Source of the DNA: an uncultured Gammaproteobacteria bacterium
Lineage (GTDB): Bacteria; Patescibacteriota; Microgenomatia; Levybacterales; GWA1-39-11
Length of the DNA: 50,530 bases
NCBI GenBank assembly: GCA_964651815.1
Contig: CAZYWG010000003.1
Coordinates: 1 to 50,530, forward strand
Direction of reading: 5' to 3'
The position numbers were made by a program, and so were the translations under genes. The notes under the pieces were generated by a model that made no database searches, was not told the DNA's origin, and saw nothing but the letters and a program-made list of their open reading frames with translations. The stretch's first letter is position 1. Each line of letters starts with the position of its first letter. Of this stretch, positions 45,861 through 49,047 are shown piece after piece.

Positions 45861-47195
45861 ATGGCAGGTCAACGTATCCCACCAAATAGTATTGAAGCTG
45901 AATCAGCAGTTTTAGGCGCTCTTATGATAGACCATGAGGCAATAAACACTGTTGTCCAAATAGTTAAAGCAGACTACTTTTACAATGGAAATAATAGGCT
46001 TATTTATGACGCCATGCTTGTCTTATATGAAGAAAGAAAGCCAATTGATCTCTTGACGCTAACCCATTCGTTGAAAAAAAAGAAGCAATATGATCTTGTT
46101 GGAGGTTCTGACTATTTAACGTCATTAACAAACGCAGTTCCAACTGCAGCCAATATAGAGCATTACGCCCAGATTTTAAAAGAGACTTATATTAGGCGGT
46201 CTCTTATTACTATTGCTGCGTCAATGACTGACCTTTCTTTTGAAGAAAACAAACCCTCTTCAGAACTTCTTGATTCCGTTGAGCAAACTATTTTTAGTGT
46301 TTCTCAAGAAAATGTAAAACAGGGGTTTATCCACGTTAAAGATGCACTTGCGCAAAGTTTTGATAAATTGGACGAGCTCCATAAGCGCAATTCTGCTTAT
46401 CGTGGAATCGAGACTGGATTTGTGGATCTTGATTTGCTTCTGTCCGGTCTGCAAGATTCAAATTTAATTGTTTTAGCAGCACGTCCGGGACAGGGTAAAA
46501 CAGCTTTTGTAATAAATATTGCGCAATTTGTCTCAGCGGTCAAGAAAAATCCGGTAGGGGTATTTTCTCTCGAAATGAGTAAAGAAGAACTTGTTGACCG
46601 TTTGCTTATTTCTCAAGCAAATATTGATGCTTGGAAACTTAAGACCGGAAAGTTGTCAGAAGACGATTTTGAAAAACTCTCAAATGCAATGGGAGAGCTG
46701 GCGGAAGCCCCGATTTTTATAGATGATACTCCGGGAATTTCAATTGCTGAAATCAGGTCAAAAGCGCGTCGTCTTCAGCTCGAACACGGTCTTAAGCTAC
46801 TTATTGTTGACTACATGCAACTTATTTCGCCGGGCAGGCGCTTTGAAAATCGCGTGCAAGAAGTAACTTATATTTCTCAATCCCTTAAAAACCTCGCCCG
46901 CGAACTTAAAATCCCTGTTATTGGAGTTTCACAGCTGTCGCGTGCAGTAGAGCATAGAGGGGAGCGCCGCCCGCAATTGGCTGATCTTCGTGAGTCAGGG
47001 TCTATTGAGCAGGATGCAGACGTGGTAATGTTTCTTTATACACAAGACGAAGATTTTACTCCTCAAAGAATTGTTAAAATAAACATTGCCAAACACCGTA
47101 ATGGTCCGGTAGGAGAGCGAGAGCTTCTTTTCCGCGGCGACCGTATTAAATTCTTCAATGTAGAGCATACCGCCGGTGAAACCGCGGCAAATTAG
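45861..47195 (+). CDS. dnaB: Replicative DNA helicase
   Basis: PPNSIEAESAVLG, AARPGQGKT, SLEMS, VDYMQL, DLRESGSIEQDAD, KHRNGP. Confidence 0.97.
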   Translation: MAGQRIPPNSIEAESAVLGALMIDHEAINTVVQIVKADYFYNGNNRLIYDAMLVLYEERKPIDLLTLTHSLKKKKQYDLVGGSDYLTSLTNAVPTAANIEHYAQILKETYIRRSLITIAASMTDLSFEENKPSSELLDSVEQTIFSVSQENVKQGFIHVKDALAQSFDKLDELHKRNSAYRGIETGFVDLDLLLSGLQDSNLIVLAARPGQGKTAFVINIAQFVSAVKKNPVGVFSLEMSKEELVDRLLISQANIDAWKLKTGKLSEDDFEKLSNAMGELAEAPIFIDDTPGISIAEIRSKARRLQLEHGLKLLIVDYMQLISPGRRFENRVQEVTYISQSLKNLARELKIPVIGVSQLSRAVEHRGERRPQLADLRESGSIEQDADVVMFLYTQDEDFTPQRIVKINIAKHRNGPVGERELLFRGDRIKFFNVEHTAGETAAN

Positions 47196-47223: not shown

Positions 47224-47670
47224 ATGGCATCAACACTTGAAACAGTTACAAGAGAGCGTAGTATGAGACCGTTTTTTAAAGCGCTTGCGGATAAGAAGAT
47301 TAGTGGTCAAGATGTGTCCGCTTATCGTGTTCAGCAGGGCGGCGTTGTAAACATTACTCACCCGAATCTCGGGGTATTAGTTGTTATCGAAAGTGGAGAA
47401 GGCGTAGATGTTTCTGTTAAGTCTTTGGCAAAGTACGCAAGGTTTGTTGGAAAGGGTGGTTTCGAAATGGAAAGTGATGGAGGATTTCATTTTCAGCTTG
47501 AGCATGAAGAAAACGTAATGCTGGTTAATAAGAGAAAAAGGGTGGAAATGGATATTAGACTAAGTCCTTCAAATCCACCGCCCGCGGAAGAAGCTATGGT
47601 AGGTGCTAGGGTTAAGCCCGTTCCCCCAACATTAAGCGCAGCAGCTGCGAAAGAAATTCCGAGGTCTTAA
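47224..47670 (+). CDS. Hypothetical protein
   Basis: 148-aa ORF starting 6 nt after TGATATAAT. Confidence 0.7.
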   Translation: MASTLETVTRERSMRPFFKALADKKISGQDVSAYRVQQGGVVNITHPNLGVLVVIESGEGVDVSVKSLAKYARFVGKGGFEMESDGGFHFQLEHEENVMLVNKRKRVEMDIRLSPSNPPPAEEAMVGARVKPVPPTLSAAAAKEIPRS

Positions 47671-47712
47671 AATCACCGGCCAATTTAGTATAATATTCAA
47701 GTTCGTATTCAG

Positions 47713-47929
47713 GGGCCTATGGTATAGTGGTAGCACGGGGCATTCGTGCCTGCGATTGTGTATGCATGGGCTTATAGGTAAGTGGTATACCGGTACATTC
47801 GCATTGTACAGTCCCGAGTTCGATTCTCGGTAAGTCCACAAAACTTTTGCAGGCACTGAGACGGGATTCGATCCCCCATGGTCTACATAAAATGGCACCC
47901 AGACGCCAGTTCGATTCTGGCTAGGTCCA
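47713..47929 (+). tRNA. Interrupted outer tRNA-Ala-like gene (5' half 47713-~47750, 3' half ~47896-47929) enclosing a complete tRNA
   Basis: Acceptor GGGCCTA/TAGGTCC-A with G3.U70; D-arm GTAT-AGTGGTA-GCAC; perfect T-arm GCCAG-TTCGATT-CTGGC; anticodon arm broken by an insert of about 150 nt. Confidence 0.75.
47768..47838 (+). tRNA. tRNA-Ala(CGC), complete, nested; CCA not encoded
   Basis: GGGCTTA/TAAGTCC-A; D-arm GGTA/TACC; anticodon arm GTACA-TTCGCAT-TGTAC; T-arm CCGAG-TTCGATT-CTCGG; G3.U70. Confidence 0.95.
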
Positions 47930-48071
47930 CCCCGCTTTGGCGGGGTGCATCAAACACATAGTGATTGAGCAACCAAAAACCTAAACTCCTACTGGAATTG
48001 TGACTCGAGCTGAATAATATTAGAAAAAACCTGTTGCATTTTATTTTTTAATTCAATATAATTTGTTATTA

Positions 48072-48186
48072 ATGGGACAGCTAAAAATGAAAATTTTTCT
48101 TAACACTCAGGTCGCGCTTGTCGTAGTTGACGCGTGATTTTGAGTGGGAGAAAAATCTTTTGGGCCTCCCACGGGAGGCTTTTTTT
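48072..48186 (+). promoter_or_regulatory. Leader-peptide transcription attenuator (Val-rich)
   Basis: Leader ORF 48072-48137 MGQLKMKIFLNTQVALVVVDA; 1:2 hairpin; 2:3 pairing GTGGGAG/CTCCCAC; terminator GCCTCC-CACG-GGAGGC-T7; promoter TTGCAT-17-TATAAT (48034-48062). Confidence 0.7.
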
Positions 48187-48209
48187 ATGGCCTAAAGGTG
48201 GTGAGTTAT

Positions 48210-48500
48210 ATGACAGAAGTACCGCGCTTAAGCGCAGAAGAACAATTTAAAGTAGAACAATACGACCGTGCTAAAACTATTGCAACGCATTTAGTTGGAA
48301 TTGCTCGCTCAATTCCCAAGCAGGAGAGAGGGCAATATGGAATACCCGATTTTGTTGACTTGCGGGGAATGAGAAACTCGTTGGCAAGAACTTATTTAAA
48401 AAGCGATCCACATGAAGAAGATGATCTTCATATTGGGATTGCTCAGGGTATATCAAAGTGGTTTATAGATTCTCTTCCGAGAATACAGCACGAGATATAA
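48210..48500 (+). CDS. Hypothetical protein (96 aa) downstream of the attenuator
   Basis: ATG 48210 after an AAGGTGGTGA SD. Confidence 0.7.
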   Translation: MTEVPRLSAEEQFKVEQYDRAKTIATHLVGIARSIPKQERGQYGIPDFVDLRGMRNSLARTYLKSDPHEEDDLHIGIAQGISKWFIDSLPRIQHEI

Positions 48501-49047
48501 CATCGTTAACTTTATAATTAAGGTCATCTATCGACCCGTCGTTATCAATTATAATATCGGCAAGATCAAGACAAGCTTTTACTTGTTGGCGGTGACTTCC
48601 AACTTGCGAAAGTTCAAGGTCGTCGAGTGTTTTGAATTCCTCCCACGTTGAGACGCCGGCCTTATTTGTCCCGCGGTTTTTGAAGAAGTCAAAACGTCGT
48701 CTTTGGTCTGCTATAACTCCAATTATCTTTGCGCCGAATTTTTCTTTTATAAAAGTGACTTCCGCAGGGTTTCTAATTGCATCAACCACTACAAATTGGG
48801 GATTATCTTTTTCGATGAGTTCGGCCGTCCTTTTTGCCAATATGTCTGTTCCAAGTGTCCCACGTAAATCATTTGCCACCTCATAAAGCGTCTCTCGAGT
48901 TATTTCCATTCCGCGTGCCGTGATTTCTTCCCTGATTCTATCGGAAAGAGAGTAGACTGAATATCCCTTTTCTTTTAGAATTTGCGCAACCGTACCTTTG
49001 CCGGATGCAATTGGTCCAACAAGCCCGAAAACACGTTTGTCCATCAC
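48463..49047 (-). CDS. P-loop nucleotide kinase (dephospho-CoA kinase-like/UPF0200)
   Basis: GPIASGKGT P-loop; VVDAIRNPAE; ADIIIDNDGS. Confidence 0.82.
   Translation of the reverse strand: MMDKRVFGLVGPIASGKGTVAQILKEKGYSVYSLSDRIREEITARGMEITRETLYEVANDLRGTLGTDILAKRTAELIEKDNPQFVVVDAIRNPAEVTFIKEKFGAKIIGVIADQRRRFDFFKNRGTNKAGVSTWEEFKTLDDLELSQVGSHRQQVKACLDLADIIIDNDGSIDDLNYKVNDVISRAVFSEENL

Follow-up and report, generated by a model that had tools for sequence, protein, structure and literature searches.

tRNA genes are usually seen as the most stable, vertically inherited parts of a genome, although their anticodon loop is a classic crossover place of integrative elements; Williams, in 2002, is said to have sorted integration within tRNA genes into sublocation classes. 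The subject of this report is a nested locus at positions 47713–47929 of a 50,530-nt stretch of DNA (the window: contig CAZYWG010000003.1 of assembly GCA_964651815.1, assigned to the order Levybacterales of the Patescibacteriota), where a tRNA-Ala(CGC) gene is split by an insert that carries a complete second tRNA-Ala(CGC). Here the replacement of a tRNA gene appears to have been caught with both alleles present in nature, and replacements of this kind in relatives seem to concern at least 23 anticodons.

Several described systems resemble this locus in part. Classic islands rebuild the tRNA gene from the 3′ half that the island brings and leave a 3′ fragment kilobases away, whereas here both halves, with an entire foreign tRNA between them, lie within 217 nt. 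Bacterial group I introns in tRNA anticodon loops are about 200 nt long or more, contain a ribozyme core and leave a restored tRNA. The insert in the window likewise sits in the anticodon loop of a bacterial tRNA gene, but it measures 151 nt, is mostly tRNA, has no match to an Rfam intron at E values up to 10 and interrupts an exon that cannot be restored. The Rickettsia palindromic elements and the Correia, ERIC and REP sequences are short inverted-repeat elements that occur in many copies, are co-transcribed and are tolerated within genes. The cargo-less forms of both arm families described below look like them, and we know of no such element described as tRNA-bearing or as lying within the gene for a matching tRNA.

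In the tRNA-dependent lysogeny of actinobacteriophages, integration takes place near the anticodon, the host tRNA is not reconstructed and a phage tRNA of the same isotype is required (Guerrero-Bustamante and Hatfull, mBio 2024; PMC10865867). The window is alike in that the host tRNA is broken near the anticodon and not rebuilt, and that the insert brings in a replacement of the same isotype. The two differ in that the phage case involves a whole prophage, a tyrosine integrase and an 8–10-bp common core at attL and attR (PMC10865867), as against a 151-nt insert, no core repeat, no integrase nearby and a replacement tRNA directly between the halves. The tRNA fragments of integrative elements are comparable in that displaced tRNA pieces mark past insertions (Islander database, PMC4383910; van der Gulik et al., 2023, PMC9897764). 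Archaeal disrupted tRNAs also have interruptions in the D, anticodon and T regions and a helix that joins the halves, and in one natural population of archaea a full tRNA has a 5′ fragment of its own kind next to it (mobile-element model of Sugahara et al., 2012; PMC3293823). Archaeal exons are cut by a splicing endonuclease at a bulge-helix-bulge and ligated, whereas in the window the exon has been damaged and what interrupts it is itself a tRNA; no such motif was seen there by eye, and the genome search found no such enzyme.

Our literature search, which took in few subscription journals and no supplements, found no report of a bacterial tRNA nested in a gene for the same tRNA, nor of such cassettes; the pattern is apparently both widespread and undescribed. 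Below, G000 is the window's own genome (15 contigs, 94.8% complete), other G numbers are genomes of the same order, L numbers are fetched loci and X1 to X4 are sequencing runs. X1 (possibly the source sample), X2 and X3 belong to one study and X4 to a different one. The tRNA-Ala genes are called type O (the outer, resident one), type I (the inner one) and type X (a third type), and a slash within a sequence or between two positions marks a joint.

Two alleles of a tRNA-Ala(CGC) gene

The locus is, in our judgment, probably a recent insertional replacement of the resident tRNA-Ala(CGC) and not an intron. The event itself is 151 nt (47747–47897) in place of five bases, C36–G40. Run contigs (Logan) were aligned on 47400–48200 of the window as a check of joints and alleles. 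A contig of X4, 252 nt long at a depth of 3.9, matches 47603–47746 with 0 differences, continues with CATTG and resumes over 47898–47998 with 2 differences. The allele belongs to a near-identical relative and is a tRNA-Ala(CGC) without interruption, whose anticodon arm reads GGGCA-TTCGCAT-TGCCC; because this allele has the window's flanks with CATTG at the position of the insert, the nest is a recent insertion. The filled allele was recovered from the other three runs with 0 differences: a 2276-nt contig of X1 spans 47713–48200, and X2 and X3 each have a 123-nt contig over 47717–47839 and longer contigs from 47810 or 47811 to 48200. Since contigs of all three cross both joints, the assembly is sound.

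The outer gene lies downstream of dnaB (45861–47195), and a tRNA-Ala(CGC) gene follows dnaB in 10 of 12 genomes of the genus (in one other the contig ends, and one has no tRNA there). In G011, the closest genome by DnaB (87%), and in G008 this gene is a contiguous type O of 72 nt, identical in the two, and type O occurs in other genera of the family at 93–99% identity. Judging from position and identity, the outer gene is the resident gene. The inner type I gene is 97% identical to the gene at the equivalent place in G005, and 95, 93 and 92% identical to genes of G029, G039 and G025, of another family. It is the sole Ala(CGC) gene among the 42 tRNA genes that ARAGORN finds in G000.

ARAGORN and Rfam call only the inner tRNA at the locus, the former as tRNA-Ala(cgc) and the latter as RF00005 (63.6 bits, E 1.4e-11; cut-off 29). 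The outer pieces were returned by a repeat search as 71–73% copies of the inner tRNA's two halves, along with an exact 8-nt core of the inverted repeat, and by nhmmer, with a profile built from 89 distinct Ala tRNAs, as partial hits over positions 1–34 and 42–72. Compared with the contiguous tRNA-Ala(CGC) of G011, the 5′ part is 88% identical over positions 1–34 (E 3.7e-6) and the 3′ part 97% identical over positions 40–72 (E 1.1e-9). We judge from these values that the similarity of the outer halves exceeds chance. The D stem of this lineage's type O, at 47722–47737, is weak (G-C, T-A, A.C, T.G; GTAT/GCAC, where relatives have GTTC/GAAC). Its A.C mismatch was considered as decay after the insertion, and this was ruled out: the uninterrupted X4 allele has an identical D arm, so that the weak stem is older than the insertion.

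An earlier note on this DNA, made from the letters, had placed the TATAAT, the two outer parts, the inner tRNA and the inverted repeat where we find them, and it had read G3.U70 and A73 in both tRNAs, as we do. It was also right that no simple splice restores a 7-nt anticodon loop: with C36–G40 gone, no excision rebuilds such a loop on a 5-bp stem, and ARAGORN in intron mode (introns of 0–400 nt) again calls the inner tRNA only. The removal of 47751–47899 that it had proposed does not follow the actual boundaries, which are 47746/47747 and 47897/47898 (151 nt for CATTG), and the UUCG hairpin that it had derived from that removal is a native one, GGGCA-TTCG-TGCC(T) at 47737–47751, with no excision required.

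The inner tRNA takes up 71 of the insert's 151 nt, and the insert is homologous, beyond the tRNA itself, to nests in G244, G218 and G125. Shared are CATTCG(CA)/(CC)CGCCTGC on the left and the right arm with a type X 3′ half on the right. In G244 and G218, type X is broken at CATTCGCA by CCCGCCTGC, which leads to type I, then GGCGGGCAAG and, after the joint, TTGCGG with the X 3′ half. In the window CATTCG/TGCCTGCGA comes first, followed by type I, TTGCAGGCAC, the decayed 3′ half of an X and a tail of 12 nt, and because of this shared order we read it as three layers, O around partial X around I. By alignment, the insert is a diverged form of the core of such nests, which are found in another family, and it derives from an older nest of that kind. 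Its X 3′ half (47857–47885), whose T arm is two bases short when compared with the X 3′ halves of G002 and G001 (GGAGACGGGAGTTCGATTCTCCCATGGTCCA), can be aligned to G244 and G125 and has no Rfam tRNA match at E values up to 10.

The left joint lies within CATTCG, six bases common to O and X, and the right joint is without homology. The insert does not run from arm to arm: it extends 41 nt beyond the right arm, and the target has lost 5 nt. Because of this loss and overshoot, illegitimate capture fits better than clean arm-to-arm transposition.

The history of the locus may be drawn as follows. This lineage had a type O gene downstream of dnaB, with a presumed promoter of its own, and in the strain of the window a foreign 151-nt piece took the place of C36–G40. 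The inner gene would be transcribed from the resident promoter, as it has no promoter-like site of its own; RNase P and 3′ processing enzymes would release the inner tRNA from the transcript, and this tRNA would now be the sole decoder of that kind in the cell. What is left of the outer gene would be dead, and intact-looking only through recency. With lower confidence, we suggest that the piece may have come as DNA from another member of the group and that it may have joined on the left at the CATTCG shared in the anticodon loop (microhomology) and on the right by illegitimate joining.

As for the promoter, 47667–47694 is the sole promoter-like site on the + strand before 48127 in a hexamer scan, which is weak by itself, as the number of such sites in the region equals the shuffle mean. 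The motif TTAGTATAATATTC also stands upstream of the tRNA in G005, G007, G004, G002, G001 and G011. The outer halves are most likely inert, as far as their sequence tells, and because the insertion is recent their intact stems are uninformative on selection. The coordinates of the features are collected in Table 1.

Table 1. Features of the nested tRNA-Ala locus and its surroundings, in window coordinates
Feature	Position	Strand	Remarks
Promoter-like site, TTAAAA-16 nt-TATAAT	47667–47694	+	Precedes the outer 5′ part; 10 of 12 hexamer positions match
TATAAT	47689–47694	+	Read in the sequence
Outer type O tRNA-Ala(CGC), 5′ part	47713–47746	+	Acceptor strand, D arm, GGGCATTCG; 5′ strand of the anticodon stem and loop to G35
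Left inverted-repeat arm GTGCCTGCGA	47746–47755	+	Diverged form of the order-wide arm CCCGCCTGC
Insert, 151 nt	47747–47897	+	Stands in for CATTG of the resident gene; span skipped by the X4 contig
Inner type I tRNA-Ala(CGC)	47768–47838	+	G3.U70, A73, no encoded CCA; called by ARAGORN and Rfam
Right inverted-repeat arm TTGCAGGCAC	47847–47856	+	Pairs with 47746–47755 over 10 bp, with one G.T
Decayed type X tRNA-Ala 3′ half	47857–47885	+	Variable region, broken T arm, acceptor strand ATGGTCT-A
Insert tail CATAAAATGGCA, 12 nt	47886–47897	+	No match elsewhere in the searches made
Outer tRNA-Ala(CGC), 3′ part	47898–47929	+	C41 of the anticodon stem to A73, with a perfect T arm and TAGGTCC-A
GC-rich hairpin CCCCGC-TTTG-GCGGGG	47930–47945	+	Abuts the outer 3′ end; no T run; one copy in the genome
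Terminator-like hairpin with T run	48162–48190	+	Possible end of the tRNA transcript

Inverted-repeat cassettes in the genus and the order

Other genomes hold nests of this kind or pieces of them. G001 has a whole nest, made up of an X 5′ half, CCCCGTTAGAT, a full tRNA-Ala(CGC), ATCTAACGGGGTGAA and an X 3′ half. Only the right arm and a 3′ half remain in G002 and G003, a type I 3′ half remains in G004, and 5′ relics remain in G007 and G005. The 3′ relics behind the working tRNA in G002, G003 and G004 resemble the fragments left by islands. The working tRNA-Ala(CGC) of G007 (L029 / L008, at 1502–1573 of L008) has a 5′ part and anticodon arm of type O and a T arm of type I, a mosaic that suggests recombination between alleles at the locus. 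When 245 genomes of the order were searched, the nest of G001 was found at 91% identity in G073, of another family, with variants in others, and type X turned out to be an ordinary contiguous gene in many of them.

A strict arm pattern (CCYGCCYGC, 75–105 nt, GGCRGGC) matched in 59 of the 245 genomes, and the reversed pattern, used as a control, in 0. The earlier note had called for a search for nested cases across CPR genomes, and in this order such cases are common: 57 of 90 places with the arm pattern enclose a tRNA, with 23 different anticodons. The core of the window's own inverted repeat, GCCTGC/GCAGGC, fits this arm family, and the window aligns with G244 and G218; the strict pattern itself has no match there.

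Whether the flanks of a cassette belong to a tRNA gene was assessed by removing the cassette in silico and querying ARAGORN for a tRNA that spans the joint. A local-alignment test for cognate flanks, which gave 20 of 57 places with at least one flank and 9 with both, was dropped in favor of this excision test because strict local alignment overlooks divergent outer alleles. Excision rebuilt an outer tRNA at 37 of the 57 places, always on the strand of the inner tRNA (0 on the opposite one). Of the joints, 22 fall in the anticodon arm, 10 in the D region and 5 in the T region. The rebuilt tRNA had the cargo's anticodon in 19 cases, another anticodon of the same isotype in 1 and an anticodon of another kind in 17. 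Where the joint lies in the D region, the outer anticodon is the cargo's in 8 of 10 (L230 differs and L235 is ambiguous). Cargo-less elements behave otherwise, as excision yields a tRNA in 1 of 33 of this arm family and, with only 70-nt flanks used, in 0 of 77 of another. Judging from these comparisons, the window is one case of a wider pattern, in which tRNA cassettes bracketed by inverted repeats stand within genes for the matching tRNA.

The arms of this family are two 10-mers, CCCGCCTGCC and CCTGCCCGCC, with two constant mismatched positions, and they occur in both orientations relative to the tRNA. Because they are conserved in sequence and in both orientations, they suggest that they are recognized as DNA, rather than acting as an RNA helix. 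The G.U pairs of the clamps (the paired arms) had been considered as a sign of an RNA helix, and this was rejected, as the arms stand in both orientations and one of these gives A.C and C.A. A second arm family, CCCCGTTAGA..TCTAACGGGGTGAA, is multi-copy and present in many phyla; it has a tRNA inside in 8 of 85 matches, and its ends, CTTGC.. and ..GTGAA, likewise stand in both orientations (4 and 4), which points the same way. The fetched loci also contain 8 pairs of CCCCGTTAGA arms that are 311–4318 nt apart, and in 18 loci the elements with these arms match no Rfam family at the gathering threshold.

Some further observations were made on short repeats of these kinds. The inverted-repeat element ..ACCCCGTTAGA .. 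TCTAACGGGGTGAA has a variable AT-rich filling of 80–110 nt and occurs in at least 120 stretches of public records, in phyla that include Saccharibacteria, Parcubacteria, Omnitrophota, Planctomycetota, Nitrospirota and Desulfobacterota, and also under Patescibacteria titles; the motif matches no Rfam family and nothing in the literature searched. Examples, among loci L089–L208, are L093 7344–7461 (−), L092 2652–2754 and 3983–4087, and L095 77–195 (−). In 21 of 85 matches the element has ATGAAC or GTGAAC on its left, and by eye the right arm TCTAACGGGGTGAA supplies GTG-AA at the start of a conserved protein (atpD, rplA, secE, gmd). Short arm hairpins (e.g., CCTGCCCGCAAAGCATGCTAGCATTGCAGGCGGG), single and in tandem, stand outside tRNA genes in L233, L236, L280, L286, L293 and others, from several genomes of the order, and look like a REP-like repeat family.

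Weighing the explanations

Several points weigh against insertional replacement or against parts of it. The empty-site allele is known from the one short, low-depth X4 contig. What is said of expression, of processing and of silent outer halves comes from the sequence, and the joining mechanism is deduced from the anatomy of the junctions. The donor was not found: an exact 23-mer over the inner tRNA 3′ end and right arm had 0 hits in metagenome contigs, and of 10 hits to a looser pattern 8 were chance matches in coding DNA and 2 were real nests (L297 and L298), neither of them like the window. The strict arm pattern has 0 matches in G000, and the window's arms join the family by alignment only. 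The 17 of 37 rebuilt tRNAs with an anticodon unlike the cargo's also count here; most of them are joined within the anticodon loop, and there the anticodon that is called varies with the cut, but L230 is a clear exception. The excision test is permissive, too, since flanks swapped between loci still give a tRNA in 20 of 57 cases, a result that marks the flanks as halves of tRNAs and ARAGORN as permissive. Finally, a Gln(TTG) nest in G022, G178 and G204 is well formed across two families, with a change from T7-A66 to G7-C66; its joints are identical in genomes of the two families and the outer cloverleaf is good in 3 of 5. Such nests could have spread horizontally, or some outer genes could be kept for a reason.

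One alternative is that the insert is a small non-autonomous mobile element, whose arms would be the ends for a recombinase or transposase supplied in trans and which would insert into the loop-coding parts of tRNA genes. Survival would then need a matching cargo, or the cargo would guide the element, and the window would be an aberrant event with an overshoot at its right end. The arms, conserved as sequences in both orientations with shared mismatched positions, fit this explanation, as do the multi-copy second family with its many phyla and its tRNA in 8 of 85 matches, the spread of joints over the anticodon (22), D (10) and T (5) regions, and the left joint of the window, which falls at the start of the arm. 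It would also account for the contrast in cargo, in that 65% of the cargo-bearing elements lie in tRNA genes, as against 1 of 33 and 0 of 77 of the cargo-less ones. That contrast would be expected if insertions survive only with a matching cargo and equally if the cargo aids in finding the target. For the window itself we nevertheless regard this explanation as unlikely. No transposase or recombinase could be tied to the arms and no Y1_Tnp transposase was found in G000; the insert does not run from arm to arm, its target is short of 5 nt and there is no target-site duplication. Neither the window arms nor other arm motifs are repeated in G000, and the idea that the window cassette is a multi-copy element of its own genome was dropped on that ground.

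For the tRNA cassettes taken together, a tentative suggestion, which we would not put at even chances, is that they form an undescribed class of small mobile elements that overwrite tRNA genes from within. They may land in the loop-coding parts of the cargo's own gene, perhaps by pairing between cargo and chromosome, and use the resident promoter. They may leave nested fossils of up to three layers (the window; L157), and they may have at least two arm families, one of them across many phyla. If such a class exists, tRNA genes would turn over horizontally in small genomes. Mobile cassettes would also offer ultra-small genomes a new route by which translation components pass horizontally. They would confuse annotation through the tRNA halves and pseudo-tRNAs that they give rise to, and they would be a natural case of an insertion tolerated only because it carries the function that it destroys. 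A possible advantage would be that the anticodon-loop sites of phages and islands are destroyed, or that tRNA alleles evading anticodon nucleases are gained. With its two alleles, defined joints and short arms, the locus offers a testable system for the targeting of DNA to tRNA genes.

Another explanation takes the nest for the scar of a larger phage or island, integrated at the anticodon loop of tRNA-Ala(CGC) with a compensating tRNA. The remainder would have been deleted later, and the tRNA retained since the cell depended on the copy. The principle has been shown experimentally for actinobacteriophages (PMC10865867), and in an archaeal population a full tRNA was seen with a 5′ tRNA fragment 1.8 kb upstream and a recombinase gene in the interval (PMC3293823). 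The window also has two stretches that G011 lacks; in that genome dnaB, the tRNA gene and the kinase gene nearly adjoin. One, of about 450 nt between dnaB and the tRNA locus, holds a 148-aa open reading frame (ORF) without a Pfam family (47224–47670), and the other, of about 530 nt (47930–48462), separates the locus from a kinase-like gene (48463–49047, − strand). We still think this history improbable. The flanks of the empty and filled alleles are near-identical, and integration and near-total deletion would have to fit into a short time. No core is repeated at the joints (CATTCG/TGCC on the left, TGGCA/CCCAG on the right) and 5 nt are lost. The 8 neighboring ORFs scanned, between 43872 and 49920, encode DnaB, an AAA-type kinase or a DUF5666 protein or have no Pfam match, with no integrase family among them, and in none of the nests examined is there anything beyond spacers and arms between the two halves. 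Viral contigs gave 0 hits to exact 25-mers from the 3′ ends of types I and O, a weak point as only exact matches count.

A function at the RNA level, in turn, would make the inner tRNA an intron-like cargo between outer halves that are rejoined, or would make the halves a split, chargeable, non-decoding tRNA-like RNA. AlaRS charges acceptor minihelices, and in the window both outer stems pair and G3.U70 and A73 are retained. The 217-nt nest folds with the outer acceptor stem, the T arm and the clamp at −76.7 kcal/mol (z −2.26; 6 of 200 shuffles equal it). Clamps of other nests show paired changes, from CCCCGTTAGAT/ATCTAACGGGG in G001 to TCCCGTTAAAT/ATTTAACGGGA in G102 and from CCCGCC/GGCGGG to CCCACC/GGTGGG in G107, and certain outer genes are well formed across families. 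Such a function is nonetheless very unlikely here, as the loss of C36–G40 means that the rejoined product would be no decoder. In G000, which is nearly complete, the splicing endonuclease family PF01974 (EndA) and RtcB (PF01139) have 0 matches each, with controls positive in 4 archaea for the former and in 10 of 14 genomes for the latter. Judged by eye only, no bulge-helix-bulge (3-nt bulge, 4-bp helix, 3-nt bulge) was seen at the joints. cmscan of 47600–48100 at E values up to 10 matched no group I or other intron family; besides the inner tRNA it gave only weak chance matches far under their cut-offs (Plastid-ycf2, isrB, istR, RsmY and cyano_tmRNA). The arms are asymmetric and would form A.C and C.A mismatches in one of the two transcribed orientations. 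In many relatives (G002, G005, G007, G073, G098 and those of the G232 type) the outer halves are missing, cut short or full of hairpins, and in a recent polymorphism the integrity of the stems carries no signal of selection. General removal from tRNAs at the RNA level is also disfavored because elements with cargo stand in tRNA genes and those without do not.

These results bear on the three readings that the earlier note had offered. A tRNA-bearing intron does not agree with the deletion of C36–G40, the missing PF01974 and RtcB matches or the rarity of cargo-less elements in tRNA genes, and a chargeable non-decoding RNA lost its support once recency explained the intact outer stems. The note had taken these stems as a hint of selection or recency; the empty site in X4 favors the second, under which the stems say nothing on selection. 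Its third reading, a tRNA insertion that destroyed and replaced a paralogue, holds for the insertion and for the replacement of a gene with the same anticodon, as the relatives, the X4 allele and the sole Ala(CGC) gene indicate, while the gene that was hit is the resident orthologue. The spanning sequence that it had asked for exists in the contigs of X1–X3. The decayed 3′ half of a third tRNA-Ala, the descent of the insert from an older nest and the widespread repetition of the pattern are features beyond that note.

A misassembly, with wrong joining of reads from two organisms that occur together and differ in their tRNA-Ala allele, is barely conceivable: related organisms with contiguous type O, and with type I in other contexts, do co-occur in the same runs, but both joints are crossed with 0 differences by separate contigs of each of X1, X2 and X3, and that of 2276 nt spans the nest.

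Other tRNA genes and insertions

ARAGORN lists no Lys(TTT), Glu(TTC) or Pro(CGG) tRNA in G000 and a single CAT tRNA. The unlisted genes may lie in assembly gaps or be interrupted beyond recognition; intron mode recovered none of them.

More complex nests were seen in two loci. In L157 (7411–7520), a tRNA-Ala(TGC) cassette stands in the D loop of a second tRNA-Ala, which is itself preceded by the 5′ half of a third, broken in the anticodon loop. L159 (6614–6723, − strand) has an outer tRNA-Thr(TGT) with both a cargo-bearing and a small empty element in its T loop. An insertion of 40–50 nt with the core ..GCGGAC..GAGCTCGCYTGCTTGACARG.. is found in the D loops of outer tRNA halves of the Ala CGC, Ala GGC and Trp identities, in L049 (G073), L051 (G244), L065 (G027), L056 (G091) and L213 (G007).

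A hairpin with a symmetric GAA/GAA internal loop, GTCCTCCGAAGC-TTTA-GCGAAGGAGGAC and longer, recurs in the loops of dead tRNA halves (L032 in G004, L033 in G014 and L081 in G098). It lies exactly between positions 37 and 38 in G004 and G014 and behind a working tRNA in G008 (L027), and its core has one copy in G000, on contig C4 near 82302. In L039 (G042), about 80 nt upstream of the tRNA at 452–523, two tandem 37-nt units (GGGCCTTAGAGCGTTAGCTCGCAGGACCAAAAAAGTT) resemble a tRNA-Ala cut down to its acceptor stem and one hairpin.

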